Shown: positions 17,041 through 34,416, counted from the first letter of the stretch. The stretch: DNA of 43,312 bases from a virus (IMGVR_UViG_2565956616_000006:1-43312), one strand, 5' to 3'. Notes: generated by a model not told the origin, from the letters alone. A program made the numbers and translations.

Positions 17041-17635
17041 TTTCTTAACTTTCCATGCAGAAGCAACGCCTGACGGCGTAAACATCATGTACCGCAGCAA
17101 CGATGGCATGACAGAACGCGTTGAGGCCATCTCATATATTGATGCCGTAAATCGTCTGGATGCCGGGGATTATGACGATAAACCAGATGAAGGTATGTCA
17201 ATACATCTCGCTATTGCCGATGGCGGCAACCAGGGATATTTCGATTACACATCACAGCATAACGTCATTATGTGGAGATGGCTGATCGCAACAGTATTCA
17301 TGCTGGAAATGAGAGAGGAAAACGGCACTGTCAGCATCATTGATGATACTGGCAATCCTTCCGAAGTGGCTGTTTATTCCAACGGCATCGTCGCCATGCC
17401 GCTGTATCCAGTAGCAGAGCGCCTCGCTATGGCAAACAACATTGAGGGCGCGATGATAGAACGTTTTGGCATCGAGTCTGGCACAGAACGCGCCATCATT
17501 TTCTACAGAGCCATGATGGATGTGGAACAAGGAGCACTGACTCCATTTGGTCGTGAAACGCTTGCTGAACTTCACAACAGCTTTATAGCTGAACTGAATG
17601 AAAACGGCATGCCAGCGGAACCAGTGACGCACTGA
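17033..17635 (+). CDS. Hypothetical protein, 200 aa (ORF-track start at 16928 trimmed)
   Basis: ATG at 17033 overlaps the previous stop (ATGAATAA). The upstream extension lies inside the preceding gene. Confidence 0.55.
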   Translation: MNNFLTFHAEATPDGVNIMYRSNDGMTERVEAISYIDAVNRLDAGDYDDKPDEGMSIHLAIADGGNQGYFDYTSQHNVIMWRWLIATVFMLEMREENGTVSIIDDTGNPSEVAVYSNGIVAMPLYPVAERLAMANNIEGAMIERFGIESGTERAIIFYRAMMDVEQGALTPFGRETLAELHNSFIAELNENGMPAEPVTH

Positions 17636-17645
17636 GGATGGAGCC

Positions 17646-17987
17646 ATGATTACTAAAAATTTCCGACTGAATGCGCTGGCAAATAAGTATGCGTCGGCAC
17701 TGTATAACCACATTACCTCCACCAGCGGCGGGGACTATTTCATGGTTGATGCGGACGGCGAGGCCGTCCGTGTGGAAATCGTCAATGGAGTAAAAGGCGT
17801 TCGCAGCCTGATCGATAGCTACACACTGGCAGCCATGAAAGTGTTCTACCCGCAGTGGGAAACCGTGGGGATCGAGCTTCTTGAACGTTGCGTCACTAAG
17901 GACGGATTGACTGACGTCGGGCGTGAGATATGGCAAAGCATGGTTAATGACATGGGCGCAACTGTAGCGGGAGGTTCTCATGCGTGA
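17646..17987 (+). CDS. Hypothetical protein, 113 aa
   Basis: SD-like GGATGGAG 4 nt upstream. Same operon. Confidence 0.55.
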   Translation: MITKNFRLNALANKYASALYNHITSTSGGDYFMVDADGEAVRVEIVNGVKGVRSLIDSYTLAAMKVFYPQWETVGIELLERCVTKDGLTDVGREIWQSMVNDMGATVAGGSHA

Positions 17988-18351
17988 AAATGCAGAAATG
18001 GCGCTTAGCTCAGCAATCGGAGAGCAGGTGGCAAAGATTGCTGGTGCTGTGTGGATTCATAACCTTCATTCTACTGGTGAAGAGAAAATGGTAATTCAGA
18101 CGCCAGAGGGACGCACCATTACTACATCTCTGAAGCCGTCAGATGTTTGTGATCTGATTTGCGCATTCATGTACCCAGCAATGAGGACTGTCCACGGCGA
18201 TAAGTGGAAACTTGCGACAACCGCTGAATTTGATATGTGGCTAAACAATGATGGCATGCTGACTGATTACGGAATAACCAAGTGGCAGATGCTGGTTAGC
18301 CATATCGCAAACGCTATAGACCACGTGGGGTACGGTGATGCGAAACATTGA
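17980..18351 (+). CDS. Hypothetical protein, 123 aa
   Basis: Overlaps the previous gene by 8 nt. Same operon. Confidence 0.55.
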   Translation: MRENAEMALSSAIGEQVAKIAGAVWIHNLHSTGEEKMVIQTPEGRTITTSLKPSDVCDLICAFMYPAMRTVHGDKWKLATTAEFDMWLNNDGMLTDYGITKWQMLVSHIANAIDHVGYGDAKH

Positions 18352-21094
18352 TCTTATCCGTCAGGTTATCAGTGCGTCTGAAAACAACTGGCCTCATGTG
18401 CTGGGCTGCCTGAACATAAATGTCCCTGACTCTCCGCGCCGTCATGCTCCCTGCCCTGCATGTGGGGGCAAAGATCGATTCCGGTTCGATGACAACGGGC
18501 GCGGTAGCTTCATCTGTAATCAGTGCGGCGCTGGTGATGGGCTGGATTTAATTAAACGCGTAAATAACTGCGACACAACAGAGGCGGCGCTTCTTGCCGC
18601 TGATGTTCTGGGTATTGATTACCGGACAACGGAAACACCAGAAGCCACCAGCCAGAAACGGGAACAACTGGAAACCGAGCGCCAGCGACGCGAACAGGAG
18701 CGCCTGAAAAGGGCAGAGAAGGACGAACAACAAAGACGGGATACGTTTTCCCGTCAGTTTGATGACATGCGCAGAAAGGCTGTAAACGGCAAATCTGATT
18801 ATCTGGTTGCGAAAGGGGTAGGTGATTTTACATTCCCCGTGTTGCCCGATGGATCTCTGTTGCTGGCGCTGGTGGATAAATCCGGCGCAGTAACAGCAGC
18901 ACAGACTATTACCTCACATGGTGAAAAAAGACTCCTGACAGGTTCAGCAAAGCGGGGGGCATATCACGCCATAAACGCACCAGAAACAACACAGAGCATC
19001 TTAATCGCAGAAGGTCTGGCAACGGCATTATCTGCCCATTTAATTCGTCCAGAGGCGCTGACAGTGGCGGCGATTGATGCCGGGAACCTGTTATATGTCG
19101 CCCAGGTACTGCGGGATAAATTTCCTTCAGCACAAATCATCATTGCTGCGGATAACGACCACAGCGAAGGAAGACAAAACACGGGGAGAATAGCAGCAGA
19201 AAAAGCAGCTTTATCTGTTTCTGGATGGGTGGCATTACCCCCGACAGATCACAAAGCAGACTGGAATGATTACCACCAAAAACACGGCATTAAATGCGCC
19301 ACAGAAGCGTTCAATAAGTCAATGTACCAACCACAGGGTAATGGCGTGAAACAGGAGCCACAGACCATTGAGGGAAGCGATTTTAAGGTTATGGATACCG
19401 ACCCACTGAAACCAAGAATAGAAAGCCGCGAGGATGGTATTTATTGGGTATCTCCGAGAGCTGACAGCCAGAGTGGAGAAATCATCAATAACGAAAGCTG
19501 GTTATGTTCTCCGTTAAGCGTTATCGGTACTGGCAGAGACGATAAAGACCAGTATCTCATTCTTCGCTGGCTGTCGTTTGGTTCTGAAACGCCGACAACC
19601 GCTGCCATTCCACTGGCTGATATTGGTGAACGTGAAGGATGGCGCACACTTAAAGCTGGTGGGGTAAATGTCACGACCAAAAGCAGCCTCAGAGCAATAC
19701 TGGCAGACTGGCTACAACGCAGTGGCTCTCGTGAATTGTGGCGTGTTGCTCATGCCACTGGCTGGCAATGCGGAGCGTACATCATGCCTGATGGGGAAAT
19801 CATCGGAACACCTGAAAATCCTGTGCTGTTCAGCGGGAGAAGCTCAGCCGCAGCCGGATATACCGTCTCAGGGAGCGCGAAAAGCTGGCGTGATAACGTG
19901 GCGCGTCTGGCCTTTGGTAACTATTCAATGATGACCGGGATCGGCGCAGCACTGGCAGCGCCATTGATTGGGCTGGTGGGCGCTGACGGGTTCGGCATTC
20001 ATTTCTATGAGCAGTCGAGCGCAGGTAAGACCACCACGGCAAACGTGGCGAGCAGCTTATACGGCAACCCTGATTTACTGCGGCTGACGTGGTACGGAAC
20101 CGCGCTGGGGCTGGCAAATGAGGCCGCCGCCCACAATGACGGACTAATGCCGCTTGATGAAGTTGGTCAGGGCGCTGATCCTGTCAGCGTTTCACAGTCT
20201 GCCTATGCGTTATTTAACGGTGTAGGGAAACTGCAAGGCGCTAAAGATGGTGGAAACCGGGATCTAAAACGCTGGCGTACAGTGGCAATCAGCACCGGAG
20301 AAATGGATTTAGAAACATTTATCGCTACTTCCGGGCGAAAAACCAAAGCCGGGCAACTGGTGCGACTGCTGAATATTCCGTTGAGTAAAGCAGTACGCTT
20401 TCACGATTACCAGAACGGAAAACAGCACGCAGACGCACTGAAAGACGCTTACCAGCATCACCACGGCGCGTCCGGGCGTGAGTGGATTAAATGGCTGGCA
20501 CACCACCAGCAACAGGCTATTAAAACCGTTCGTGATTGCGAAAGCAGATGGAGAAGCCTGATCCCATCCGATTATGGTGAGCAGGTTCACCGTGTAGCCG
20601 CGCGATTTGCCATTCTAGAGGCCGCATTGTTGTTAGGCGAGGTTGTAACAGGCTGGGATGCTCAGACATGCCGTGATGCGATACAGCACAGCTATAACGC
20701 ATGGTTGCGCGAGTTCGGCACAGGTAACAAAGAGCATCAGCAGATTATTGAACAAACGGAGGCATTTCTTAATGCCTATGGGCTTAGCCGTTTTGCACCA
20801 TTTCCATACAGCCCGGCAGATTTGCCCATCAAAGATTTAGCCGGATACCGTCAGCGTGGAGAACATGACGAAAGCCCAATGATTTTCTACACATTCCCGG
20901 CCACATTTGAAAAGGAGATCGCATGTGGTTTCAACGCAAAACAGTTTGCTGAAGTGTTGAAAAAAGCCGGGATGCTAACCCCACCAAACAGCGGTCGTGG
21001 ATACCAAAGAAAATCACCACGTATTCAGGGACGACAAATAAACGTTTATGTACTCAATTACCAGCCAGGAGATTATAACTCATCTGAAGAATGA
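18335..21094 (+). CDS. P4 alpha-type primase-helicase: Zn-ribbon, Toprim and DUF927/D5-like NTPase, ~919 aa
   Basis: CPACGGKDRFRFDD...G.FICNQCG zinc motif. Toprim-like LIAEGLATALS...IIIAADND. Walker A SSAGKTT. Followed directly by iterons. Confidence 0.85.
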   Translation: MMRNIDLIRQVISASENNWPHVLGCLNINVPDSPRRHAPCPACGGKDRFRFDDNGRGSFICNQCGAGDGLDLIKRVNNCDTTEAALLAADVLGIDYRTTETPEATSQKREQLETERQRREQERLKRAEKDEQQRRDTFSRQFDDMRRKAVNGKSDYLVAKGVGDFTFPVLPDGSLLLALVDKSGAVTAAQTITSHGEKRLLTGSAKRGAYHAINAPETTQSILIAEGLATALSAHLIRPEALTVAAIDAGNLLYVAQVLRDKFPSAQIIIAADNDHSEGRQNTGRIAAEKAALSVSGWVALPPTDHKADWNDYHQKHGIKCATEAFNKSMYQPQGNGVKQEPQTIEGSDFKVMDTDPLKPRIESREDGIYWVSPRADSQSGEIINNESWLCSPLSVIGTGRDDKDQYLILRWLSFGSETPTTAAIPLADIGEREGWRTLKAGGVNVTTKSSLRAILADWLQRSGSRELWRVAHATGWQCGAYIMPDGEIIGTPENPVLFSGRSSAAAGYTVSGSAKSWRDNVARLAFGNYSMMTGIGAALAAPLIGLVGADGFGIHFYEQSSAGKTTTANVASSLYGNPDLLRLTWYGTALGLANEAAAHNDGLMPLDEVGQGADPVSVSQSAYALFNGVGKLQGAKDGGNRDLKRWRTVAISTGEMDLETFIATSGRKTKAGQLVRLLNIPLSKAVRFHDYQNGKQHADALKDAYQHHHGASGREWIKWLAHHQQQAIKTVRDCESRWRSLIPSDYGEQVHRVAARFAILEAALLLGEVVTGWDAQTCRDAIQHSYNAWLREFGTGNKEHQQIIEQTEAFLNAYGLSRFAPFPYSPADLPIKDLAGYRQRGEHDESPMIFYTFPATFEKEIACGFNAKQFAEVLKKAGMLTPPNSGRGYQRKSPRIQGRQINVYVLNYQPGDYNSSEE

Positions 21095-21112
21095 GCTTCT
21101 TCATGTGCGTAG

Positions 21113-21230
21113 AAAAGGTGTTGGTTCAGTTGGTTCAGTTGGTTCAATTTGTAAAGTGTATTGTTTTATAAGGATTTTATTCTTTTTATTGAACCAACAC
21201 TGAACCAACAACACGGTATTTTGAACCAAC
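21113..21230. repeat. Iteron origin candidate 1: 3 tandem TTGGTTCA(G/A), a ~40-bp AT-rich spacer, then 3 inverted TGAACCAAC
   Basis: Tandem 9-mers at 21121-21147. Inverted copies at 21190, 21201 and 21222. Lies immediately 3' of the primase-helicase gene. Confidence 0.75.
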
Positions 21231-21283
21231 ACAATGTGACTGAATTGATGCGCACAACACCTGGCTGGCATCAGAGAGTGTTT

Positions 21284-21355
21284 TACGAGACTTTCGTAAA
21301 ATCCTGTGTACAAGGGCGTGACGTTTTTGAAAGTGAGCACTACGAAATTTTCGTA
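21284..21355. promoter_or_regulatory. Two TACGA-N5-TCGTA inverted-repeat sites (21284-21298, 21341-21355)
   Basis: Read directly, 57 bp apart. Operator-like; the binding protein is unknown. Confidence 0.45.
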
Positions 21356-21550
21356 GTTCAAAAAACAGCCTCTGAGAAGTTGTTATGCCTGTTCAGCAAA
21401 CCATCCGCATAGCTGATCGCGAATCAAATTACCAATGGAGCCAGAAGCAAGGGCAGAACTGAAAAGCGCCTGCCGTGAAGAGTAATGCGACACCATAAAT
21501 ATAGTTTTTAGAGTCCATAAAAAACCTGTCAAAACCTGACACACAGAACG

Positions 21551-21583
21551 ATGCCACCAGCTACTGAGCGGTGGCATTTTTTT
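21551..21583 (+). terminator. Strong rho-independent terminator ending a non-coding stretch
   Basis: ATGCCACC-N11-GGTGGCAT followed by TTTTTT. No credible ORF in the ~300 nt upstream on the + strand. Confidence 0.75.
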
Positions 21584-21678
21584 GTGCTATTTGTTTCATA
21601 TTTTGCAATTACTATGATGAATATTGCGATTTGTGAAACTATAATAACTGTTGTTTTATACAGTTCTAAGGGGGCGTT

Positions 21679-21840
21679 ATGGCTATTTCAGTAAAGCCGG
21701 TATTGATAAGTGAGAAGCAAATGGAAGCGATAAAGAAAATTCAGGAAGAGCAGCGTAAAAAATCAGGAATTGGAGTAGCGCCAACTCTGCATGAAATTGC
21801 ACGAGGGTTAATAGATAAGGCGCTGGCAGGCTGTATGTGA
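21679..21840 (+). CDS. Small ribbon-helix-helix-like protein, 53 aa (below the ORF-track cutoff)
   Basis: ATG at 21679 after AAGGGGG. Translation MAISVKPVLISEKQMEAIKKIQEEQRKKSGIGVAPTLHEIARGLIDKALAGCM has a beta-strand, helix, helix layout. The inverted repeat TTGCAAT-N13-ATTGCGA at 21603-21629 lies upstream. Confidence 0.5.
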   Translation: MAISVKPVLISEKQMEAIKKIQEEQRKKSGIGVAPTLHEIARGLIDKALAGCM

Positions 21841-21856
21841 AAATGGATGGCATCGC

Positions 21857-22318
21857 ATGGAACTAAAATTTATTGATAACCCTGTGCGATTACAGGCCTT
21901 TCTTAACGAGCCAGGCAATACCGAAAATATTGTTGAGCCGGGGCACACGTACTACATCAAGCCTGATGCGGTATATCTCGGCATCTACGAAGGATTGGTG
22001 CTGGCTGGCGTTCATGAAGTGCGTAACTTCTGGCATAGCATTGTTGAATGCCATGCGGTGTACGACCCCGGATTCCGTGGTGAATATGCACTGCAAGGGC
22101 ATCGATTATTCTGCAAATGGCTTCTCGAAAACTCACCATTCCTTAACAGCATTACCATGGTTCCTGACACCACCAAATACGGACGGGCAATTATCCGTTT
22201 GCTTGGCGCTACCCGTGTTGGTCACCTTGATGATGCTTATATCAGATGTGGTAAACCCGTCGGCGTAACGCTTTATCAGTTAACTCGGCAACAATATAAG
22301 GAATTCAGCGAATGTTAA
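21857..22318 (+). CDS. gp14-like protein, second copy (satellite-borne), 153 aa
   Basis: Same size and position as 2699-3154. Shared motifs: CHA.Y.P..RG, G.....(L/I)G..RVG. Confidence 0.65.
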   Translation: MELKFIDNPVRLQAFLNEPGNTENIVEPGHTYYIKPDAVYLGIYEGLVLAGVHEVRNFWHSIVECHAVYDPGFRGEYALQGHRLFCKWLLENSPFLNSITMVPDTTKYGRAIIRLLGATRVGHLDDAYIRCGKPVGVTLYQLTRQQYKEFSEC

Positions 22319-22989
22319 TTACCCACATAGCTCATAAACATCTCAATCGTGCCGTATACGAAAAAGGCGGTGATGGTGGTGCCTCTAAAGCTCAGGCGAA
22401 GGCCCAGCAGCAGGCAATTGATTTGCAGCGCGAGCAGTGGAATACGGTGATGAATAATCTCAAGCCGTATGCAGAAGTCGGATTGCCTGCTTTACAACAA
22501 CTACAAGGACTGATGACTCTGGAAGGGCAGAATAAAGCCGCGAATGATTTCTTTGGTTCTGGTTTATATAAAACACAGGCAGATCAGGCCCGTTATCAGA
22601 ACCTTGTCTCAGCAGAAGCTACCGGGGGGCTTGGCTCAACAGCTACCAGTAACCAGTTATCTTCCATTGCGCCCATGCTTTATAACAATTGGCTTAGTGG
22701 GCAAATGCAAAATTATGGAAACCTGCTAAATGTCGGGATGAATGCGGCATCAGGGCAGGCAACAGCAGGGCAAAACTACGCCAATAATACCGGGCAACTC
22801 TTGCAGGGGCTTGGCGCTATTCGTGCAGGTCAGGCGCAGCAGCCATCCAGTCTTGCGCGTGGTATTGGTGGGGCGGCATCAGGCGCTTTAGCGGGTGCGC
22901 AACTTGGTTCCGTTGTTCCGGGTATAGGTAATGTCGCCGGGGCTATTGGTGGTGGGCTTATTGGTCTTGTTGGGGGGCTTGGATTCTAA
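22312..22989 (+). CDS. gp7-like ejection protein, second copy, 225 aa
   Basis: Aligns by eye with 3157-3852 through KGG.GG, W/FNT.MNNLKP, QARYQ.L..AEATGGLGSTATSNQL..IAP.L...WLSGQM.NY.NL and the Gly-rich hydrophobic tail. Confidence 0.85.
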   Translation: MLITHIAHKHLNRAVYEKGGDGGASKAQAKAQQQAIDLQREQWNTVMNNLKPYAEVGLPALQQLQGLMTLEGQNKAANDFFGSGLYKTQADQARYQNLVSAEATGGLGSTATSNQLSSIAPMLYNNWLSGQMQNYGNLLNVGMNAASGQATAGQNYANNTGQLLQGLGAIRAGQAQQPSSLARGIGGAASGALAGAQLGSVVPGIGNVAGAIGGGLIGLVGGLGF

Positions 22990-24410
22990 TGGCGACATGG
23001 CAACTTGGCGGGCTGCCTAGCATGGCACCGCAAAATGATAATGCTCCTCGTTCTTCCGTTCCTCAGCCTGTGCAGTATCAGCAGCAGCCAAACGTAGGTT
23101 TAATGGCGCTACAGGGGCTAAGAGGCGTTGCTGAGATTAATCAGCAGGCACGTCAACAACAGCGTAAAGCAGAGTTTCAGAAAGCATATGCCGGGGCTTT
23201 TGAGTCTGGAGACAGAAACAAAATGCGCAGTCTTATTTCTGAGTATCCAGAAGAATTTGAAAGCGTTCAGAAAGGGATGGGCTTTATTGATGACGACCAG
23301 AGAAATTCTATTGGTCATCTTGCGACTAGTGCTCAAATCGCATCTTCGCTCGGAACTGGGGCATTTGGAAAATTCATAGCAGATAACGAAGATGAAATGC
23401 GTCGCTTGGGAATTTCTCCTGAGTCTGTTGCCGAAATGCATGTTAATGATCCACAGGGATTCCAGCGGCTTGCTGGTAGTATGGCACTGTTTTCTCTCGG
23501 TCATGAGAAGTATTTCGATATCAAAGATCAAATGGAAGGTCGGGATATTGAGCGTGGCAAGTTGGCAGAAACAATCCGCAGCAATCAGGCTGGCGAAGCA
23601 CTTCAGGCGAGAGGGCAGGATATTAGCCGAGCAAATGCGTTAACGTCAGCATATGCACCAACAGCAGCAATGCAGAATTACAATCAGTACGCTCAAATGT
23701 TAAAGGAGGATCCAGAGGGGGCGGCGGCATTTGCGGCAGCGGCTGGAATTAATACAAACGCCAAAAAATTAATGAGTGTTAGAGAAAACGATGATGGCAC
23801 TGTCACAAAATACTACACAGACGGAAGTGAAGAGCAGGGAAAACTAAACCAGCCAATATCTGGAGATGGGTTTCGTCCAATAGCTTTGCCAACAGCCCAA
23901 AAGATCATGGAAAAGTCGCCAGAAGGGGCTAAAAAAGCTGCTGGATTTGCATACAGGGTTAGGGATGCTCTTGATTCAATAGATACACTGAAAGACCAGC
24001 TTAGCCCACAGCGAGTGGCGATCATTAATAATGCTTTGGGTAATGGGACGCTGGCTAACTTAACGCTCAGCCCAACAGAGCAGCAATACGTTGTTAATGC
24101 TAATGACGCAATAATGGCAATACTCCGTCAGGAAACAGGGGCAGCTATCGTACCTGCTGAAATGTCAAAATATTATCAAATGTATTTCCCTCAGCCTGGC
24201 GACTCCACAAAAACCATTGATACCAAGCGCCGGAAGATGGAAAACCAGTTCAATTCGCTGAAAGCTGCTTCTGGTCGAGCTTATGATGCTTTGCGGGTTA
24301 TTTCAGCAGTTGACAGAGGAACTTCTTCTTCGTCGCAGACATTGCCGCAATCTGAGCAGGTATCACAGCCAGCAGCCAGCAGTAACTTTTCTTCACTATG
24401 GGGTGATTAA
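22989..24410 (+). CDS. gp20-like ejection protein, second copy, 473 aa
   Basis: MATWQ.G start, 473 vs 471 aa. Shared [20 protein letters not shown] block, which is 52/55 nt identical to the prophage copy. Confidence 0.85.
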   Translation: MATWQLGGLPSMAPQNDNAPRSSVPQPVQYQQQPNVGLMALQGLRGVAEINQQARQQQRKAEFQKAYAGAFESGDRNKMRSLISEYPEEFESVQKGMGFIDDDQRNSIGHLATSAQIASSLGTGAFGKFIADNEDEMRRLGISPESVAEMHVNDPQGFQRLAGSMALFSLGHEKYFDIKDQMEGRDIERGKLAETIRSNQAGEALQARGQDISRANALTSAYAPTAAMQNYNQYAQMLKEDPEGAAAFAAAAGINTNAKKLMSVRENDDGTVTKYYTDGSEEQGKLNQPISGDGFRPIALPTAQKIMEKSPEGAKKAAGFAYRVRDALDSIDTLKDQLSPQRVAIINNALGNGTLANLTLSPTEQQYVVNANDAIMAILRQETGAAIVPAEMSKYYQMYFPQPGDSTKTIDTKRRKMENQFNSLKAASGRAYDALRVISAVDRGTSSSSQTLPQSEQVSQPAASSNFSSLWGD

Positions 24411-26515
24411 TGGCTAAAGCATGGAAAGATGTTATCGCCTCTCCACAGTATCAGGCGTTAGCACCAGAACAAAAAGCGCAGGCTCAGGAGCAATACTTCA
24501 ATGAAGTCGTTGCCCCGCAAGCCGGAGAAAGTGTAGAGCAGGCTAAGCAGGCTTTTTATGCTGCCTATCCACTACCATCAACGAATGAAATAGACCGAGC
24601 CCAATCAGCAACTCAAAATATTCAACATACATCATCTGATAATTCTCTTGCGTCAGGGTATGCAAAGTTAGCTACTCAGCAAAGAGAGGGGCTTGAGCGT
24701 TCAGCAGAACAGGGAGCCAGCCTTGGGGCTGCGATGCGCGATGCTATAACAGGCGAAAGCCGAATGACTCCAGAGATGGAGAGACTGCAAAATGTCGACC
24801 TTGCCCCAGAGTTAACCTCACTCAGCATGGATGCTCTAAAAGCTCGATGGTCTCAACTTTTCGGCTCTGACGCATCTCAGGAAAAGATTCTTCAGAGCAT
24901 GGGAGCGAAATTAAGGCAGGATGAGAAGGGTAACACTATCGTTTCCCTGCCATCCGGTGATTATGCTCTGAACAAGCCGGGTTTATCGCCGCAAGACGTG
25001 GCATCGTTTCTGGCTAATGCGCTGGCGTTTACACCAGCGGGCAGGGCCGGAACGGTGCTGGGGGCCATAGGGAAATCAGCAGCTACAGATTTAGCACTAC
25101 AGGGAGCCACCAGCCTCGCTGGTGGAGAAGATATTGATCCGTTACAAACGGTAATTTCTGCTGGCATTGGTGGTATTGGTAAGGGGCTGGAAAATACAGC
25201 GAGTGCGGTTTCGAGGGCTGTTCGTGGTGATATGTCGCCTGAAGCAAAGGCTGCTGTCGACTTTGCATCGGAAAGAAATCTGCCGTTAATGACCAGTGAC
25301 ATGCTGAAAGATAAAACCTTTATGCAGAGTCAGGCTCAGACATTAGGCGAAAGAGTTCCTTTTTTTGGAACCGGTAAGAATCGGCTGAATCAACAACAAG
25401 CACGAGAAAATTTAGTCAGAACATTTAGCGATGGTCTGGGTGGCATTTCTGATAAACAGCTTTATGAATCTGCGACTAAAGGGCAACAAAAATTCATTGA
25501 GGCAGCAGGAAAGCGATATAACCGCATAATTGACGCTATGGGGGATACCCCTGTCGATCTCTCAAACACGGTAAAAGCTATCGACAATCAGATTGCTGTG
25601 TTAAGCCGCCCGGGTAAATCTCAGGATAGAGCCGCGGTAAAAGTCTTGCAGCAATTTAAAGACGATATCACCAGCGGACCAAATGACCTGCGTCTGGCGA
25701 GGGAAAACAGAACCGATCTTCGAAAGCGGTTTATGGCGTCATCTGACACTGTTGATAAAGATACGCTCCAGAAAGCCAGCGATATTATCTACAAGGCATA
25801 TACGGCGGATATGAAAAAAGCCGTAGCCAAAAATCTTGGAGCAGACGAAGCCATTAATATGGCAAGGGTTGATCGCTCATGGTCTAAATTCAATGACATG
25901 ATGGGAAGAACGCGCGTTCAAAAGGCAATAGCCAGCGGCAAGGCCACGCCTGAGGATGTAACAAAACTCGTTTTTAGCCAAAGCCCATCAGAACGTTCTC
26001 AGCTTTACAGGCTTCTGGATGACAATGGTAGGCAAAACGCACGAGCAGCCATAGTTCAGAATGCTGTAGATAAGGCGACTGATCCGTCTGGAAATATCAG
26101 TGTTGAGAAGTTTATTAATGCGTTACACCGGAACAGGAAGCAATCAGCAACTTTCTTTAAAGGCGTACATGGAAAGGAACTGGACGGCGTTATTAAATAC
26201 CTCAACGATACAAGACACGCGGCAAAAGCGAACGTTCAAAACTTAAATGGTCAGCAGCTTTATGGATTGTTAGTTGGTGGTGGCATCATAAACGCAGCAG
26301 TATTAGCGGGGATGCTAAAAACGGCTGCGTTTGTTGTTCCTGCTGCTGGTGCCGTAGGCGGAGCCGCGAAGGCATACGAAAGCCCTGTTATACGAAATGC
26401 CTTGTTACGTTTGGCAAATACGCCAAAAGGTAGCACAGCATATGACAGAGCGATCAGTACGGTCACACAATCGCTCACCAGAGTCGCACAGGCATCACAA
26501 AAAGAAGCTCAATAA
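24410..26515 (+). CDS. gp16-like ejection protein, second copy, 701 aa
   Basis: Position and TAATG coupling. Shared motifs with 5275-7116: MTSD(V/M), KD...AVAKNLGA(S/D).[17 protein letters not shown]. Confidence 0.8.
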   Translation: MAKAWKDVIASPQYQALAPEQKAQAQEQYFNEVVAPQAGESVEQAKQAFYAAYPLPSTNEIDRAQSATQNIQHTSSDNSLASGYAKLATQQREGLERSAEQGASLGAAMRDAITGESRMTPEMERLQNVDLAPELTSLSMDALKARWSQLFGSDASQEKILQSMGAKLRQDEKGNTIVSLPSGDYALNKPGLSPQDVASFLANALAFTPAGRAGTVLGAIGKSAATDLALQGATSLAGGEDIDPLQTVISAGIGGIGKGLENTASAVSRAVRGDMSPEAKAAVDFASERNLPLMTSDMLKDKTFMQSQAQTLGERVPFFGTGKNRLNQQQARENLVRTFSDGLGGISDKQLYESATKGQQKFIEAAGKRYNRIIDAMGDTPVDLSNTVKAIDNQIAVLSRPGKSQDRAAVKVLQQFKDDITSGPNDLRLARENRTDLRKRFMASSDTVDKDTLQKASDIIYKAYTADMKKAVAKNLGADEAINMARVDRSWSKFNDMMGRTRVQKAIASGKATPEDVTKLVFSQSPSERSQLYRLLDDNGRQNARAAIVQNAVDKATDPSGNISVEKFINALHRNRKQSATFFKGVHGKELDGVIKYLNDTRHAAKANVQNLNGQQLYGLLVGGGIINAAVLAGMLKTAAFVVPAAGAVGGAAKAYESPVIRNALLRLANTPKGSTAYDRAISTVTQSLTRVAQASQKEAQ

Positions 26516-26533
26516 CTGGTAGCCATGGATGGC

Positions 26534-27148
26534 TTAGATATCTCTGCTGTCTCCATTAGGAAATAAAAGATAATATGGATTTGCCTTTCTTGCTCTCCTT
26601 GCTTCACCTGGATACCTGTTAGTCAGTAGTTTGCATAATGAGCAGAGAACAACACTCAAGAAAATTCCGAATGAGAAGATCAATATCTCACCAAAAATCA
26701 ATGGCGATATTAAATTTTCAGGATTTAATGATAAGTCAATGTTAAAAACATATTGAGCAATACCAGTAAGTATCAATAATATAATCCCTATGGAATACAT
26801 TGCTGTTTCCCAAACATCAGACAGTCTATTTTTGAATTGTTCGCTGGAGTAGTAGTTTGTTATAAAGTCAGAAAAATCACTCTCATATGCATCATCTTTA
26901 GGTGATGTTAGAAATCCTCTGTCTCTCCATACCTTCTCCCAATTAGTCGATTCTTTTTTTAAGGAAAAATAAATATGTATTGCCAAAAGGATAGCCAAAA
27001 TTGGTGTTAGCTCTAAAAAATAGAATGTTATGGAATAAATAATACTGCCATGTTCAAACTCATCTGGGACTATCATGTATGCACAAAAATAAATTGAAAA
27101 GTACACCATGCAGATAGTTAGCAATTCTTTAGTATCTTTTCTGCTCAC
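26534..27148 (-). CDS. AT-rich polytopic inner-membrane protein, 204 aa, unknown function (sits where sieA follows gene 16 in P22)
   Basis: At least 4 hydrophobic segments with an acidic ~60-aa central loop. Markedly lower GC than its neighbours. Convergent with the E cassette. Confidence 0.65.
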   Translation of the reverse strand: MSRKDTKELLTICMVYFSIYFCAYMIVPDEFEHGSIIYSITFYFLELTPILAILLAIHIYFSLKKESTNWEKVWRDRGFLTSPKDDAYESDFSDFITNYYSSEQFKNRLSDVWETAMYSIGIILLILTGIAQYVFNIDLSLNPENLISPLIFGEILIFSFGIFLSVVLCSLCKLLTNRYPGEARRARKANPYYLLFPNGDSRDI

Positions 27149-27262
27149 ACCAACCCCCTTTAGCGTTGTTTAGAATGGCAATCATCATATATCCAAGACA
27201 TGGCATTTGGTACATAGCTTGGGTCGGGATTTCAAATCCGATCCCCGTTGATGGGGCCGTTA

Positions 27263-27644
27263 CAGTACGCGCATATCCGCTTTATGTGAAACAGGAAGAT
27301 TTTTCTGATATCACTGCCACAGCAAAACACCAATTTCGTGACCAGTACGCGCGCGAGGGGTATCAGTTGCAAAAATTTTGCAACTACGTCCGACCAGTAC
27401 GCACACGATGGCGGGGGATACCATGAAACTGTTCTCTACACGAGACAGAGTGGTGGTGATGTGTTGATTATCGGCGTATATGCGCACAGGACGCGCTATG
27501 ACGATGTTTTATGCGGGTACACCAATCACATGTATCTGATGTGATAAATCGTGTTACATGACATCTCATGTTGTGCTGGTGGTTATCACGACGTTCTGAA
27601 TCTGGCCTTTGCCTGATATTTTGCGACAAGTACGCGCGCGTAGC
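27263..27644 (+). repeat. Four same-orientation copies of a (C/A)AGTACGC(G/A)C motif plus the 19-bp palindrome GTTGCAAAAATTTTGCAAC
   Basis: Copies at about 27263, 27343, 27395 and 27628. The palindrome at 27365-27383 lies between copies 2 and 3. Copies 2 and 3 fall in different reading frames. Confidence 0.6.
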
Positions 27645-28017
27645 ATCGAAATTATCGGATGGCGTATGCTGCTGGCAATATGAAGACCGATAGTATTAAC
27701 CGAAAAGCGATTAAGGAGTGCCAACTTTTCAGTAGAGAAACTAGCCAGCATAGGAAAATGTAGAAATTACCCAATTAATAGGTAAAAGTTATTGACACAG
27801 CCTGTAGTGGATAACGATATGAATAAAAACCACATATAGTGGTTTTTCGTGAGTGATGATAGTATCTATGTTAGTTTCCTAAGTAACTGTGCATTGACAT
27901 GTGGATAACTTCGGATAGAGTTACAGGCAACCGAGCCCGATCCTCTGTTTCTCCGCCGCCGATTTCAGGCATGTGAGTTTCACGGTCGGGCCTTTTATTA
28001 TCTTTTGTTTCGCCACT

Positions 28018-28995
28018 ATGATTGCCGCAAAGCCTCATAAGGACTATCACGAATTGCTAGGATTGCTACTTGAACGTGGCATGATTATCAATGATCGAAA
28101 TCGTGCGATACGTAAGCTGTCGCAGGTTGGATATTATCGATTGTCAGGTTTTTGGTACCCATCAAGAATTATTGCGACAACAGATAAAGGTCTTTCGTAC
28201 AGAACAGACCGATTTCTTGCTGGTACCAGTTTCGAGAAGACGTACGATCTATATCTTTTTGACAAAAAACTGCGTCTTTTGATGATTGATGCTATCGAAA
28301 GAATAGAGATTCATGTTCGTTCAGTCATCGCGCATGAGGTTGGTCGCAATGATCCACTTGCCTACATGTCATCAAAATACATTAATCCAAAATTCTCATC
28401 TGCCTTCGAGCATTGGGTGTATAAGCAAAAAGTAAAATTAGACGAAAGCAGAGATGACTGTATTGAATGGCATCGAAGCCAAGGCAAGGAGATTCCATTT
28501 TGGGTGGCGGTGGAGACCTGGGATTTTGGTCAGATGTCTAAATATTATGCGATGCTTAATGGTCATATGCAGGGGAAAATTATACGTCGTTTTGGCATTG
28601 ATAATAAGCAGACATTTGCAAAATGGTTGAAGTGCCTTAATCTCATAAGGAATCGTTGCGCTCACCATTCCAGAATATGGAATAGAAAGCATCCCCGAGT
28701 TCCAGTACCGGATAATGAATACTTTGACGGACTTAATCTCCATCCAGAGAGTTGCGAGAGGATTTTTAGCGCGATCTGTATTATCTGGTACTTAGTTAAA
28801 CGACTTGGTCCGGGATCAACATGGCTTCGGCAAATTGCAGACCTTATTGACTCTAAACCAAATGTTCCCGGATGTGGATATGATTCAATGGGTTTACCTG
28901 CTAAAGGATTCCCACGAGAGAGATTCTCTCAGGACTTAGGTTTTGTTATCGCCGACAACGACCCTGTAGCTGAAGGGCGGAAAGGGAGCGATTGA
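28018..28995 (+). CDS. Abi_2 family (AbiD/AbiF-like) abortive-infection protein, ~325 aa (ORF-track GTG start at 27973)
   Basis: Family pattern: KP....E.L.LL..RGM.I.D...A...L...GYYRLSG(F/Y)W, LY.FD..LR.L....IE.IE...R, CLN.IRNRCAHH.R.WN. Confidence 0.8.
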   Translation: MIAAKPHKDYHELLGLLLERGMIINDRNRAIRKLSQVGYYRLSGFWYPSRIIATTDKGLSYRTDRFLAGTSFEKTYDLYLFDKKLRLLMIDAIERIEIHVRSVIAHEVGRNDPLAYMSSKYINPKFSSAFEHWVYKQKVKLDESRDDCIEWHRSQGKEIPFWVAVETWDFGQMSKYYAMLNGHMQGKIIRRFGIDNKQTFAKWLKCLNLIRNRCAHHSRIWNRKHPRVPVPDNEYFDGLNLHPESCERIFSAICIIWYLVKRLGPGSTWLRQIADLIDSKPNVPGCGYDSMGLPAKGFPRERFSQDLGFVIADNDPVAEGRKGSD

Positions 28996-29024
28996 GCGAT
29001 AAATATCATTTATACACTGATCAA

Positions 29025-29465
29025 TTACTGAAGCAGCGTATTGATTCTTTTAATATTGTTACCCTGACGCTTCCACGCGCTGTAAATGTCTTTATCCCAC
29101 GCTTTACCAGCTTTTGTTTGGTAGCCTGCTTCATTGAGCCGTTCCGCTATCACACGCCCATTATCAAATCCCTGTCGGATGGTATCGGCAATGATCTTTA
29201 TAACTGCCGTTTCGTTATATGGCTTTGGTGGGATGTTCGGCTTTCCGGCAATAAGCGACGCAGCGGCTTTTTCCATGCGCTCCACCAGCCCAAGCATTCG
29301 TGAATCAATAGACTTTTCCGGCTGTCCCAGCTTCATGCGAATCGCATCAACAAGCCAGGAGGTTTTATCCCCTCCAGAAGCGAGAACAGACCGATTAAAC
29401 TCATCCTGCAATTCAGATGGGATGCGGAACGCGACCAGATTAGATTTGCTCATTGCAAAGACCAT
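29025..29465 (-). CDS. Arc/RHH-type DNA-binding regulator with a C-terminal recombinase-like helical domain, 146 aa
   Basis: N-terminus SKSNLVAFRIPSELQDEFNR....G..K..WLVDAIR.KL is RHH-like. C-terminus I..RLNEAGY.TKAGK.W resembles the motif seen in recombinase accessory domains. The inverted repeats ACAGT-N5-ACTGT and ATAAC-N3-GTTAT at 29485-29512 lie in its upstream region. Confidence 0.6.
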   Translation of the reverse strand: MVFAMSKSNLVAFRIPSELQDEFNRSVLASGGDKTSWLVDAIRMKLGQPEKSIDSRMLGLVERMEKAAASLIAGKPNIPPKPYNETAVIKIIADTIRQGFDNGRVIAERLNEAGYQTKAGKAWDKDIYSAWKRQGNNIKRINTLLQ

Positions 29466-29568
29466 ATCAGTGAGTAATATCCATACAGTATACCACTGTA
29501 TAACACTGTTATACGCTCAAATATCAGCCAGAAAATAACGGACCAATCACAAAGCTATCGCTGTGTTG

Positions 29569-29695
29569 TTGGTTCAGAGCTGGGCTGTGTTGGTTCAAAA
29601 TGAGTTGATGTTGGTTCAATATTTCAGAAAAAACACAATAAAAACAACGATCTTTACAAATTGAACCAACTGAACCAACTGAACCAACACCTTTT
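29569..29695. repeat. Iteron origin candidate 2 (crr-like), an inverted copy of the 21113-21230 cluster
   Basis: TTGGTTCA(G/A) at 29569, 29590 and 29611. AT-rich spacer. Three tandem TGAACCAAC at 29662-29688. Positions 29652-29695 are the perfect reverse complement of 21113-21156. Confidence 0.75.
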
Positions 29696-29724
29696 TGCTT
29701 ATCTATATAATCTGAGAGGCAGAA

Positions 29725-30012
29725 ATGATAAGGGACAGGAAAGCTGAAGAACTGGAGTCAAAAGGGCTATACCGGAGAGCTGCCGCACGATGGGCAGAAG
29801 TCATGATGCTGGCAGATGGCGATAAAGAACGTGAACATGCAGCAAACAGACGCTCTGAATGTATCCGTAAGGCGGCACGCCCACCAGCAACTACAGACAG
29901 ATTCGGAGATTTAAGACAGGCAGTTAAGCGGACTCATTCGGCTCTTGGTATGGATGAGGAAGCGAGAGGGTATTTCAGGCGTTATCGCGATAAAGATTGC
30001 CAGAGACAGTAA
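29725..30012 (+). CDS. PerC-family-like transcriptional activator, 95 aa
   Basis: KAE.LE.KGLYRRAA.RW.EVM pattern, as remembered for PerC-type proteins of enterobacterial islands. Confidence 0.55.
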   Translation: MIRDRKAEELESKGLYRRAAARWAEVMMLADGDKEREHAANRRSECIRKAARPPATTDRFGDLRQAVKRTHSALGMDEEARGYFRRYRDKDCQRQ

Positions 30013-30272
30013 TGCTCTCTCTGTTTTGGCAAATTACCCCTCACTTTGAAGGGATCGGAGCTATAAAAATGGTGTTATCCGGCTTCCTGCATTGCAGGTT
30101 TTCGAAAGAATCAATGGGTTAGGTTATCGTGCAAATTTGCACTCTGCCAGCCAACGCAATTTCTCGTTGGCGGAAATATCAGGTATTTACTGAACGAACG
30201 GTCTACCCGCCTGTTCAACTACCAGTTGTACATGGCTGCTTTATGTGCAAATGGTGGTGAGAGAAAATTGTT

Positions 30273-30293
30273 TGGGGGTACTTTTGGGGGTAT
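30273..30293 (+). repeat. Arm-type repeat pair TGGGGGTACTTTTGGGGGTAT at the right end of element 2
   Basis: 20/21 identical to 11964-11984, same orientation. Confidence 0.7.
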
Positions 30294-30354
30294 CTCCAAA
30301 GATGTAACTGGAAAATGTCTTTATATATCAATGTATTTTTATTGTTTGTTTTGT

Positions 30355-30372
30355 TCCTATTATCGGCACCAT
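30355..30372 (+). repeat. att core copy 2 (junction of element 2 and element 3)
   Basis: TCCTATTATCGGCACCAT, identical to the cores at 11834 and 42759. Confidence 0.9.
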
Positions 30373-30975
30373 CAAGAAAATCAATAACTTAGCTTAACTT
30401 CTCTAAGAAATTGTATCTTCTGTTATCACTTACAAACGCCTATACGTTGTTATGGGCTTTGGTAGTGTAACACGTATGGGCGAGTAGTTCCCAGGCTCAA
30501 CCTCGTAACAAGTTCCTTTGAAGCTGGAAGACGTGCCACCGTCTCTAAACCTTCTACCAAAACTCTTAGCAAGATGTTCCACACCTGGCGCGGTGTCCAA
30601 TGATGCCACACGTCGTGAGACGTTGCAGAGGATAAACAGGCTAAATGATGGGAAGAGTTTTAAGTGCAATAGTGGATTAAAGCCCACCTCTTCAAAACCT
30701 AACTTGATCGGGAAAGAATCAAGCTCTAGCACGGTTTCGTCCACCGGAGTACAACGGGTGCCTGATAAGAGAAGAACTGCTAAGACTTCATAGCTTTTGT
30801 GAAAAAGCCCTTTTAGTGGATACGCCTACGGCGCTTATTTTTTGGTATAACCATCAAAGGCGCTTTATGGCTCCTATTGTCTTGAAAATGTATCTTTACT
30901 TGTATTGTGTTTTATGCGTAGTCTCCCTGTGTAGTATGTAACTTGTTAATTTTCATATGAATACAGAGGCACACG

Positions 30976-31134
30976 ATGAAAAACATTGCAGCTATCAAAC
31001 GTAATAACCGCAAGATTCACGCTCGTAAGTTCCTGTCTACGCCAGAAGGAAAAGCCTGGCTAGAGCGTAAACAGAGAGAGAACGAAGAAAGAAAACTCCT
31101 TAGTGAGTTGAAATGGCTTAGAGAGGATTTCTGA
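30976..31134 (+). CDS. Possible small basic protein, 52 aa (below the ORF-track cutoff)
   Basis: ATG at 30976 with GAGG 7 nt upstream. MKNIAAIKRNNRKIHARKFLSTPEGKAWLERKQRENEERKLLSELKWLREDF. Imperfect hairpin and T-run downstream. Confidence 0.35.
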   Translation: MKNIAAIKRNNRKIHARKFLSTPEGKAWLERKQRENEERKLLSELKWLREDF

Positions 31135-31299
31135 AAATCTCCAGAACGCAACAGGGCGCATTCTAACGCTGTTTTCATTGCTCGGTATAGGGATGTATAG
31201 GTGATGTGTGTTTAATGCGTCTGTGAGCTTGTTTTATGTCTTATTTTGCATTTTCATAATGCAGGAGAGAACACGGAAAGCCTTAAAATTAATTATTGG

Positions 31300-31464
31300 G
31301 GTATTTAAGGCTATTTTTAGGGTATTTAAGGGTATTAAACTTGATTTAATTGATTAAAATATAAACAGATAATTATGTATCTTATTGATTTATAAGGTTA
31401 TTTTTAAATAAAGGTAAATAAAAAATAAATAGCCATAAATAGCTATAAATACATCTAAATACCT
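31300..31464. repeat. Iteron/AT-rich block: GGTATTTAAGG x2 (+1 degenerate, +1 inverted) and four tandem 10-bp ATAAATA(G/C)C(C/T)-type repeats
   Basis: GGTATTTAAGG at 31300 and 31321. GGTATTAAAC at 31331. Inverted CTAAATACC at 31455. 10-bp tandem units across 31425-31464. Confidence 0.6.
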
Positions 31465-31478
31465 ATATCCCTTCCCTT

Positions 31479-31886
31479 ATGGCTAGATTGCGAGAGGTGC
31501 TTAACGCGATTTTTAGCGCCCCCCGATCTGGAAAATCCAGAATCCCCAAATATCAGCAAGGAATTTTCTTGCGTAATCAACATCGTTTTTACCTATTAAA
31601 TCATTACACAGAAAGCCTTTCTGTAATGTCTCTCACTAAACTTTCACTAAACACGAGAATGATCGGTTTTATGTCGGATCAGATGCTAGAAACAGCACCA
31701 CGTCTCACAAGGGCTGTAAGCGATGAAACCAGTGTTTATGCGGGTGCAGGTCAAAATATAGGCCAAAGTCCATTTAACATAATAAACGTAATATGCACTA
31801 AGGAACACATAGAACGCCTTGAGTTGATGTATAAGGGGAAAAGTGGTGGATTTTTTTACGTAGGAGCACGAGAGGGCTTCTATTGA
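31479..31886 (+). CDS. Doubtful ORF, 135 aa
   Basis: Open frame only. No SD, no recognisable family, and it starts inside the repeat block. Confidence 0.2.
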   Translation: MARLREVLNAIFSAPRSGKSRIPKYQQGIFLRNQHRFYLLNHYTESLSVMSLTKLSLNTRMIGFMSDQMLETAPRLTRAVSDETSVYAGAGQNIGQSPFNIINVICTKEHIERLELMYKGKSGGFFYVGAREGFY

Positions 31887-32267
31887 CTTTTGTATGCTAT
31901 GAAATATAATAGAAGGTTTTTATTTTTATGTTGATAGTGATTGCACATTAAAGATTGAAAGCAAATTTAAACATAAATTTTCAACACGTGAAAGAACTTG
32001 TTCGACAAATGATAGAACGTTTATTGAGCAACAATTTTGCAGTGATGCGCTATATGCCGCATAACATAAGGCTTTGCTGATGATGACGCAAAAGTGAAGA
32101 AAGCTAACATTGCACTTTTTAAGCTACTTTTCATTGGATTTTTACGTAGGAATTACACAGGGATTAATCATCAATTACATTGAATTTAAGCCTGTTTTAG
32201 ATGTTTAATTTTGGTAGCAAGAAACACTTTTAGAAGATCATTGCACAGATGTTATGTGATAAATGGA

Positions 32268-32426
32268 TGTAACGATGGGTTACATTCAGCTATCTGAAAT
32301 ACTCTCTGTAAGAAATTTGGTAGTAACGATTCGTTACATAGACTAATTATTGAATGTAACGATATTACACATCGGTAGTAACGATTCGTTACATCGGCAG
32401 ATGATTGGTTGTAACGAAAGGTTACA
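32268..32426. repeat. Array of five 17-bp palindromic sites (T/A)GTAACGA-N3-(G/C)GTTACA
   Basis: Sites at 32268-32284, 32322-32338, 32355-32371 (right half degenerate), 32377-32393 and 32410-32426. Start-to-start spacings are 54, 33, 22 and 33 bp. Confidence 0.8.
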
Positions 32427-33149
32427 CAATAAGACTAACATCTATAATACTAATAATAAAACTAACTATTAAACTATATAATATAATTCTTTTTTATCTT
32501 TATAAGAATAATTATAGGGATACCCGTTAGGGAGTCTAACGACTATCCCTTAATCTATTGGCATTCGCCAGAACCTTGCACAAGTTAGAGTGTTAGTCGT
32601 TAGACTGATACTTCTCATAACACATAGTTTTTTGTTTGTTGATGTTAGTTAGTAGATCTATGTTCGCTAATGCCGCTCACAACGAATATGTAATCTACTA
32701 TGTGCAAATAGCCTACGGCTTGCGTAAGGCTAAATAGTCTATGCGCTGTGCGCTTCAATAGTTCCATTGATGAGGCTTACGCCAATCTAACGATCATCAA
32801 TCTATTTAAGAGAAAATCTATTGTGCAATACTCTGACGAGTGCAATAACCTTGTGTGCTACGCGTTAGCGATGTTAGCACATAGACACAGACAACAACCA
32901 ACAACAAACAAAAAAGAAAGAATGGTTTTAGTAGTTGAAGGTTAAATAAGATTCTACCGCTTAAATCAAGCCTCTGGCGAGCTAAACAACCTCTACATAA
33001 GGGAATGTATTGTTTTTATCAAATACCTCGTTAGAACGCGTTTTAGAGCGTTTTAGAGAATAAGGAAGAATAGGAGCACTCGTAAGAGCACGAATTGCTA
33101 AGAAAAATTATAACACACTGAAAATGATCAATATTTTTATGGCCAGGGG

Positions 33150-33178
33150 TTGACAAAAGCTTTTAGTTATGGTAAAGT
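33150..33178 (+). promoter_or_regulatory. Sigma70-like promoter of the element-3 small-gene operon
   Basis: TTGACA (33150-33155), a 17-bp spacer, then TAAAGT (33173-33178). Confidence 0.6.
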
Positions 33179-33232
33179 AATATTAGGGACAGGAAAACAT
33201 TCCTATCCTCTAAATAATTAAACCAATGCACC

Positions 33233-33275
33233 GCACTTTGAAGCCCAAGAGGCTTGCAAGGTGTCTTTTTCTTTT
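33233..33275 (+). terminator. Leader hairpin plus U-run (attenuator, or the 3' end of a ~90-nt leader RNA) between the promoter and the first gene
   Basis: Outer stem 33233-33239 with 33258-33264. Inner stem AAGCC-CAAGA-GGCTT. Followed by CTTTTTCTTTT. The SD AGGAGG of the first gene lies at 33290. Confidence 0.5.
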
Positions 33276-34407: not shown

Positions 34408-34416
34408 GGAGAATAA

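Follow-up and report, generated by a model that had tools for sequence, protein, structure and literature searches.

The best described counterparts of the replicon considered here are the origins of the Staphylococcus aureus pathogenicity islands (SaPIs) and of the phage-inducible chromosomal islands (PICIs) of Escherichia coli. SaPI Rep, a helicase that loads itself, recognizes iterons by means of a C-terminal winged helix, and these iterons flank an AT-rich centre located immediately 3' of rep (PMC9371898). The origins of E. coli PICIs have been drawn with a SaPI-like layout, and in a plasmid assay with EcCICFT073, a pri-ori clone was maintained, whereas a rep mutant was not, and deletion of ori yielded far fewer colonies (PMC6092414). 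In E. coli MP1, the PICI EcCIMP1 has the P22-like phage Kapi1 as its helper, which induces and transduces it; the description of this island mentions neither iterons nor an origin (PMC11773190). Here, we analyse 43,312 nucleotides of viral DNA (IMGVR_UViG_2565956616_000006:1-43312; this whole stretch is referred to as the window), in which an EcCIMP1-like PICI satellite at the thrW site carries two clusters of iterons, one on either side of most of its accessory genes. We propose, with a probability of roughly 70%, that the two clusters together make up a single replication origin, as its left and right arms, with the cargo residing in its centre. The satellite family is already known from EcCIMP1; its origin was not described in the literature that we searched, and neither was a mirror-doubled or cargo-split origin of the PICI/SaPI type.

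The satellite occupies positions 11806-30372, between a 3' fragment of the tRNA-Thr gene and a 17-bp repeat of that fragment, and encodes an integrase, an AlpA-like regulator, an AntA/AntB antirepressor, Ash, Icd, a primase-helicase (Pri-Rep), a P22-type ejection cassette, a membrane protein, an Abi_2 protein, the product of orf146 and PerC. The co-directional genes for the integrase, AlpA-type regulator, antirepressor, Ash, primase and PerC at thrW, together with the absence of capsid and terminase genes, identify the element as an EcCIMP1-like PICI satellite. Consistently, window positions 11805-23149 are 97.9% identical to EcCIMP1 at the nucleotide level over 11.3 kb, from attL through the primase gene and the left arm to the first ejection genes. 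The two islands share the integration site, and EcCIMP1 also has both arms, 8.6 kb apart. They differ from gp20 onward, where EcCIMP1 carries a gene for a lytic-transglycosylase protein and alpA_1, whereas the window carries the gp16-like gene, the membrane protein gene, the Abi gene and orf146.

Two mirrored iteron arms

The replication module of the satellite comprises the following features:

18335-21094 (+): Pri-Rep primase-helicase, 919 amino acids, with a Zn ribbon, TOPRIM, DUF927 helicase and C-terminal domain (Pfam; PHROG DNA primase, E = 2e-178)
20996-21034 (+): codons for primase residues 888-900 (RGYQRKSPRIQGR), a patch co-varying with the iteron type (alignment of 47 primases, plus L175)
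21113-21230 (+): putative left origin arm; AAAAGGTG, three tandem TTGGTTCA, spacer 21147-21189, three TGAACCAAC spaced by 11 and 21 bp
21261-21267 (+): CTGGCTG motif after the spaced iterons of the left arm, with a mirror copy at 29525-29531 beside the right arm
29568-29695 (+): putative right origin arm; three TTGGTTCA spaced by 21 and 21 bp, spacer 29619-29661, three tandem TGAACCAAC, CACCTTTT

The arms share an inverted repeat of 55 nt (21113-21167 and 29641-29695; 93% complementary, 8473 nt apart) with a perfect core of 44 nt (21113-21156 and 29652-29695), for which simple arithmetic gives a chance expectation of about 1e-18 in 43 kb. The octamer TTGGTTCA is present in 15 copies in the window, compared to 1.7 expected, a count that none of 100 shuffles reached, and 12 of the 15 copies fall inside the two clusters. 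In the left arm, tandem units are located at 21121, 21130 and 21139 (+) and spaced units at 21190, 21201 and 21222 (-); in the right arm, spaced units are located at 29569, 29590 and 29611 (+) and tandem units at 29662, 29671 and 29680 (-). Each arm is composed of three tandem units with a 9-bp period, an AT-rich spacer and three phased units of opposite polarity. The spacer measures 43 bp in both arms, with an AT content of 83.7% in the left and 79.1% in the right one, versus 53.2% for the island. The primase stop codon ends at 21094, and the left arm begins 19 bp later.

An earlier reading of the window, made from the sequence only, had reported the perfect 44-bp inverted repeat, the shared architecture (three tandem 9-mers, an AT-rich spacer of about 40 bp and three spaced 9-mers of opposite polarity) and the position of the first cluster right after the primase-helicase gene, all of which are borne out by our analysis, the spacer being exactly 43 bp long. 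Its further statement that the clusters bracket the entire cargo is accurate for all accessory genes but one, the PerC gene (29725-30012) lying just outside the right arm. The arms differ in the phasing of their spaced units, which is 11 + 21 bp in the left arm versus 21 + 21 bp in the right one. Because this difference recurs across genera, the right arm cannot be regarded as a simple duplicate of the left one. An Rfam search revealed no structured RNA in or beside either arm.

The locus thus resembles a PICI/SaPI origin in several features: the iterons are found directly 3' of pri-rep, an AT-rich region is flanked on both sides by at least two iterons, those on one side being opposed to those on the other, and the replicase is a homologue of the SaPI-Rep-like protein 8tch_A. 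The specificity, as proposed below, may map to the C-terminal domain of the replicase. By contrast to the described origins, however, the unit is doubled here in mirror orientation, and its arms are parted by 8.35 kb of genes.

Compact and split forms of the proposed origin in relatives

Searches with the primase, covering one genome per species, yielded about 60 loci in Enterobacterales (primases 50-99% identical). The left arm has the same position and layout in these approximately 60 relatives, and in every informative locus the iteron array begins 25-60 bp past the primase gene. With the arm distance measured between the two outward-facing tandem arrays, the species are distributed as follows:

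Compact: ~28 species, 231-394 bp between the tandem arrays
Split: 11 species, 0.63-9.05 kb between the tandem arrays
No second array within the available 10 kb: ~12 species

Among E. coli and IMG/VR loci, the separation of the arms ranges from 2.0 to 10.5 kb, and the cargo found between the arms of split loci is unrelated from one to another. A compact unit contains, in order, three tandem units, an AT-rich spacer, at least three phased units and a short centre with CTGGCTGG, followed beyond this centre by two or three phased units, a second spacer and three tandem units of opposite polarity; the whole is roughly mirror-symmetric. The arm types of the window adjoin each other in L037 (Rahnella), L134 and the capsid-forming PICI L176, and three complete circular records, including that of a Klebsiella capsid-forming PICI, have compact two-armed origins.

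Both states are represented by two loci of Lonsdalea britannica, L014 and L047. Collinearity extends through the primase gene and the left arm, at 93% identity, and resumes at the right tandem array, beyond which the two loci are 89-97% identical; the interval from the left spaced iterons to the right tandem array holds 5.86 kb in L014 in place of 120 bp in L047. Given this comparison and the contiguity of the arms in relatives, what the sequence-only reading regarded as twin origins is better described as the arms of one origin. A neighbour-joining tree built from the primases does not group the split loci together but intersperses them with compact ones, indicating several independent changes of state.

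Several circular records of 12-19 kb deposited as plasmids (L002 = NZ_CP148430, 12,152 bp; L174, L175 and L176) are PICI-type satellites with an integrase, a primase and two-armed origins. In the 12,152-bp record L002, the primase gene is accompanied by both arms, located 1.9 kb apart. The circular form of these records suggests that they are episomal or excised forms captured by assembly.

Proposed iteron recognition and possible roles of the two arms

Residues 403-814 of Pri-Rep match PDB entry 8tch_A, annotated as 'Pathogenicity island protein' (E = 1.8e-11), which we take to be SaPI Rep; the match to the SCCmec helicase Cch (5dgk) is weaker (E = 0.011). By homology, then, the helicase part of Pri-Rep resembles SaPI Rep. 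Seven iteron types are found among the relatives, with the same type present in both arms within each lineage. When 47 primases were aligned, the only columns parting type A from the other types were those of the patch at residues 888-900, which varies with the iterons as follows:

Type A, iteron TGAACCAAC: primase patch RG[YF]QRKS-PRI in 33/33 primases
Type B, iteron TGAGACAAC: primase patch RGYQGRV--RE in 5/5 aligned primases; GYQGRVRED in the type-B locus L175
Types C and E, other iteron sequences: other primase patches

Around the patch, the C-termini associated with types A and B are otherwise closely alike. In a structural model of residues 748-919 (mean predicted local distance difference test score of 81.5), the patch maps to a strand/loop region after the second of two short helices. 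Based on these sequence patterns, we propose that the iterons are recognized by the C-terminal domain of Pri-Rep.

Initiation might proceed as follows. Pri-Rep, a TOPRIM primase fused to a SaPI-Rep-like, DUF927-type self-loading helicase, would read the 9-bp iterons via its C-terminal domain, assemble on the tandem and phased arrays on either side of the 43-bp AT-rich spacer, melt this spacer and load itself there. The ancestral origin would have been a compact, mirror-like unit of ~250-330 bp directly 3' of pri-rep, with outward-facing tandem arrays at its ends, the centre of which would, in this lineage, have come to hold the 8.35 kb of accessory genes for a helper-type ejection cassette, the membrane protein, Abi and the orf146 product. 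The mirror pair of arms would provide two oppositely oriented loading sites. From the layout and the homology of the helicase we infer that Pri-Rep binds the iterons, melts the spacer and is loaded in this manner; a single arm could probably fire alone, since each keeps the full PICI/SaPI arrangement of iterons, AT-rich region and iterons.

The arms are present in about 10% of the 5,426 complete E. coli genomes that we searched (368 with the left-arm query at >=80% coverage and 479 with the right-arm query). A second variant of the right arm in E. coli is 83% identical to the right-arm query and keeps all six units and their spacing, with different intervening sequence. The 21/21 phasing and parts of the inter-unit sequence are common to E. 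coli, Leclercia and IMG/VR loci, and the phasing is also found in Cedecea. Furthermore, the second site is present in all 39 sampled E. coli genomes with a left arm. Because units and phasing are retained while the inter-unit sequence diverges, and because the second site accompanies the left arm so consistently, the right arm appears to be under constraint.

Several observations weigh against a single split origin or against constraint on the right arm. About a quarter to a third of the sampled right-arm genomes have no left arm, and three intact examples of these, E. coli satellites with a DUF5906 replicase and other iterons, nevertheless keep the TTGGTTCA right arm at 94-100% identity, with the tandem array damaged or shortened in two of the three (one point mutation, one unit lost). 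The right arm can thus persist without its presumed reader. These satellites give the impression of recent exchanges of the replicase module in which the right arm was retained. About 12 species-level relatives have only the left arm inside 10 kb, so that the right arm may be dispensable in them, or, given that separations of 10.5 kb exist, may be located farther off; attR was found within the 10-kb flank for few loci. The direction of change, from compact to split, is one that we infer from the distribution of the two states. Types B, C and E show a clean co-variation between iterons and primase patch, type D an ambiguous one, and since the primase sequences are phylogenetically related, the counts do not represent independent events. 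Finally, the best fold match of the C-terminal model is the winged-helix, oriT-binding protein TcpK (5vfx), with a probability of 1.0 and a weak E-value (0.056, i.e., >0.001). The domain is, on modelling, probably a winged helix, and this assignment is provisional because the fold-search E-values are weak.

The DUF5906-type (P4-alpha-like) sister satellites are found at the dinD locus (L003 from E. coli ETEC1721, L170 and L171). Their own iterons, GGTACAG/CTGTACC, form two clusters 1.1 kb apart that flank two small open reading frames (ORFs); in L003, the clusters of this replicon span 4440-4560 and 5565-5680. The motif CTGGCTG(G), which is central in compact origins, also follows these unrelated iterons (L003 4578-4590). 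Downstream of the left arm in the window, a conserved non-coding stretch (21260-21585), which ends with a terminator-like hairpin (21560-21575) and a T run and has no Rfam match, is common to the DUF5906-type satellite (L003 5760-6070) and may be a leader or a small RNA. In the thrW islands L081/L082 (E. coli RM9131, 2015C-3101), no primase gene is annotated, and antA abuts a copy of the insertion sequence IS1203 (truncated in RM9131). Their right arm and PerC gene are oriented opposite to the integrase gene, and the tandem array has four units in 2015C-3101.

The sequence-only reading had interpreted the clusters as a pair resembling ori and crr of satellite P4. In a P4-like arrangement of this kind, one cluster would be the origin and the other a distant cis enhancer, both being bound and joined by DNA looping for any initiation. 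One part of the sequence-only interpretation is upheld, in that the clusters are iteron arrays of a satellite origin that, to judge from the 8tch_A match and the patch co-variation, are read by the adjacent primase-helicase. As in P4, there are two clusters of one iteron type, a single multifunctional primase-helicase and a cluster directly 3' of the replicase gene, where P4 has crr, and the constant presence of the second site in E. coli, as well as the two iteron clusters of the DUF5906 replicon, would agree with such a pair. In P4, work by Flensburg and Calendar in 1987 and by Ziegelin et al. in 1993 is said to have found that both ori and crr are needed in cis. The other part, namely twin origins or a P4-type ori with a distant crr, is not sustained: the arms are contiguous in ~28 species and in the three circular elements, and because they abut in most relatives, the distance between them is not a designed feature. 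We know of no relatives of P4 in which its two clusters abut. Moreover, ~12 relatives have no second cluster inside 10 kb, and each arm has a full PICI origin layout; the EcCICFT073 pri-ori clone used the ori region beside rep (PMC6092414).

The annotated P4 record differs from the satellite in further respects. There, two direct repeats of 120 bp make up crr, which adjoins alpha on its 3' side, and ori is found 4.7 kb off, across the alpha operon, so that the replicase operon separates ori from crr; here, the cargo separates two arms that are both downstream of the replicase gene, each arm being single and the two mirror-inverted. P4 alpha belongs to the P4/DUF5906 type, whereas Pri-Rep combines TOPRIM and DUF927, has no DUF5906 by Pfam and is SaPI-Rep-like rather than P4-alpha-like. 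The likeness to P4 is therefore one of function, not of family membership, and we consider an ori/crr pair unlikely. Distant clusters of one iteron type could also interact via their initiator, as known for R6K (alpha/gamma/beta) and for P1 (oriR/incA handcuffing). However, the initiators of R6K and P1 are Rep/pi-family proteins unrelated to Pri-Rep, and in these plasmids DnaA and DnaC load the DnaB helicase of the host; such multi-site plasmid origins provide a mechanistic analogy only.

Alternatively, the right arm could be mainly regulatory, with bound Pri-Rep controlling the divergent promoters of orf146 (or alpA_1) and PerC, or titrating or handcuffing Rep for copy control. The location of the arm, between a leftward regulator-like gene and the rightward PerC gene in all split E. 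coli variants, would be suited to this role, as would the proximity of its tandem array to a TATATAAT box (29 bp past the end of the array) and to the start codon of PerC (37 bp past it), and the conservation across genera of 'cacctttt..ttatata' after the array. Nevertheless, a consensus promoter scan of the region found no sigma-70-like site at either arm, and the AT-rich 43-bp spacer and the phased iterons that the right arm keeps would be superfluous for a simple operator. The persistence of the arm in replicase-swapped satellites can be cited in favour of a regulatory function, but the presumed regulator, Pri-Rep, is absent from precisely these satellites. A mainly regulatory right arm therefore appears quite improbable. 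Still more so is the possibility that the right arm is a remnant without function, or that it arose recently from the left one by inverted duplication: although DUF5906-type and IS-degraded elements retain it in the absence of its replicase, and many relatives have no second arm inside 10 kb, the iterons and their phasing are kept while the intervening sequence diverges, the right arm's own 21/21 spacing is shared from E. coli to Leclercia and Cedecea, and the iteron type changes jointly in both arms of compact origins.

Cargo between the arms and neighbouring elements

The genes between the two arms of the proposed split origin are as follows:

21857-26515 (+): P22-type DNA ejection cassette (DUF2824/gp14-like, gp7-like, gp20-like and gp16-like; Pfam, PHROG DNA transfer protein)
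26534-27148 (-): membrane protein of 204 amino acids, weakly SieA-like (four hydrophobic segments; phrog_7745 'superinfection exclusion SieA-like', E = 4e-4)
27973-28995 (+): Abi_2 family protein (Pfam Abi_2, E = 2e-52)
29025-29465 (-): orf146, 146 amino acids, transcribed away from the right arm; a homologue in the same orientation adjoins the right arm on its cargo side in L014, L021, L022, L027, L061 and L062

The gp14, gp7, gp20 and gp16 homologues of the satellite share 23%, 54%, 41% and 30% amino acid identity, respectively, with the copies in the neighbouring prophage. The gene for the 204-aa membrane protein directly follows the gp16-like gene. In P22, sieA follows gene 16, an order that this arrangement would match. 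The orf146 product has no significant match in Pfam and further family searches; by our own reading of the sequence, its N-terminus could be ribbon-helix-helix-like. We considered orf146 as the iteron reader and rejected it, because it is absent from most compact-origin loci, is replaced by an AlpA-like gene in EcCIMP1-type variants and has no significant family match.

Cargo is diverse, with 58 ORFs from nine loci forming 47 clusters, and orf146 alone recurs widely. In other genera, the cargo repeatedly encodes proteins for genome delivery or of the tail tip, namely tape-measure, SLT-domain ejection-like, Dit-like, hub-like and gpV/Apex spike proteins, and also toxin- or defence-like proteins, such as Fic, the P4 Beta_protein family and Tlde1 (delivery or toxin cargo at L022 14632-18042, L056 16228-18912, L021 14448-16250, L061 16258-18012 and L036 13002-16125). 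The content of the cargo suggests that satellites carry helper-matched DNA-delivery proteins, of which we found no description in the literature searched.

The inverted repeats had been suggested to mediate inversion or swapping of the 8.5-kb cargo. As far as swapping is concerned, the cargo does vary greatly between relatives, but the breakpoints are located inside cargo genes or just beside the left arm: when the window is compared to EcCIMP1, homology breaks inside gp20, and when it is compared to the DUF5906-type satellite, the break comes ~40 bp past the left arm. Because the mapped breakpoints lie away from the repeats, the arms mark a cargo slot, whereas exchange by means of the arms is unsupported. 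Inversion finds no support either. The near-perfect inverted homology of 44-55 bp could support RecA recombination, and the repeats might therefore serve as an invertible switch or as substrates for RecA-mediated flipping. However, the junction expected from flipping 21157-29651, sought in the 5,426 complete E. coli genomes, was found in none of the 553 that carry the repeats. In addition, the cargo has one constant orientation in all split loci, including those of other genera, and the repeats also occur without a segment between them, in the compact relatives. Furthermore, no significant Pfam recombinase or transposase domain was detected in the seven main cargo proteins, the smaller ORFs not having been scanned. 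In the junction search, some genomes match 64 bp past the core, a match explained solely by the resemblance of their left-arm spacer to the right-arm spacer. Overall, we regard inversion as highly improbable. That the repeats are the terminal inverted repeats of a transposable cargo element is hardly credible, since, despite the perfect inverted repeats on both sides of 8.4 kb of accessory genes, there is no transposase among the cargo proteins scanned, the outer flanks of the repeats differ (GTGCGTAG and TGCTTATC) and hence form no target-site duplication, and the repeats consist of replicase-specific iterons that adjoin without cargo in relatives.

The window contains three tandem elements at the thrW tRNA-Thr site. 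Apart from the replication module and the cargo, the following features delimit the satellite:

11806-11852 (+): attL of the satellite, the 3' part of tRNA-Thr (thrW), identified by sequence; relatives adjoin an intact tRNA-Thr gene and proA
12016-13230 (+): tyrosine integrase of the satellite (Pfam Phage_integrase, Arm-DNA-bind_3 and Phage_int_M)
29725-30012 (+): PerC-family regulator, the first gene outside the right arm (Pfam PerC, E = 3e-33)
30356-30372 (+): attR of the satellite (TCCTATTATCGGCACCA); the matches of most E. coli relatives stop at window positions 30372-30375

A PerC homologue is also encoded 3' of the compact origin in L005, L007, L009, L011, L013 and L020. Rfam matches to isrK (15689-15766, +, 67 bits) and to the C4 antisense RNA (15829-15916, +, 79.5 bits) fall within a stretch annotated as an ORF of the Ash family, which lies downstream of the gene for the antA/antB antirepressor. 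On one side of the satellite, positions 575-11500 belong to a P22-like prophage, of which they form the late end; they are 95% identical to phages EC.P3 and E212 and contain tail accessory and ejection genes and a gene for a tailspike with the P22 head-binding domain. The third tandem element (30373-42777; G+C content of 35-45%) ends with a 21-bp copy of the att core (42757-42777). Its genes include one for a Dit-like tail protein (40587-41255) and a separate tyrosine integrase gene on the minus strand (41337-42701).

A further idea, which is speculative and in our estimation rather doubtful, is that the centre of the origin is a privileged cargo slot, in which PICI-type satellites across many Enterobacterales would place helper-matched delivery proteins and defence genes between two mirror-image Rep loading sites, with the block being copied first or over-replicated after induction and the arms cooperating over up to 10 kb via contacts between Rep hexamers. 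If this were true, ejection proteins would be matched to podovirus helpers, tape-measure proteins to siphovirus helpers and hub, Dit and spike proteins to myovirus helpers, and a distance-tolerant, naturally split origin would couple the dosage of the cargo to replication.

PICI and SaPI origins have previously been described as one compact iteron unit beside rep. The loci analysed here show a mirror-doubled form of this unit in a widespread DUF927 replicon family of Enterobacterales satellites, including one capsid-forming PICI, in which the halves of the proposed origin tolerate between 0.2 and 10 kb of inserted genes. The more exotic reading of the segment as an invertible or mobile cargo cassette is thereby removed. 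For annotation of such satellites, the two arms provide a sequence landmark delimiting the main accessory region. The primase has a candidate specificity patch with matched natural iteron variants, and the relatives constitute a natural series bearing on whether self-loading helicases need paired sites and at what distance.

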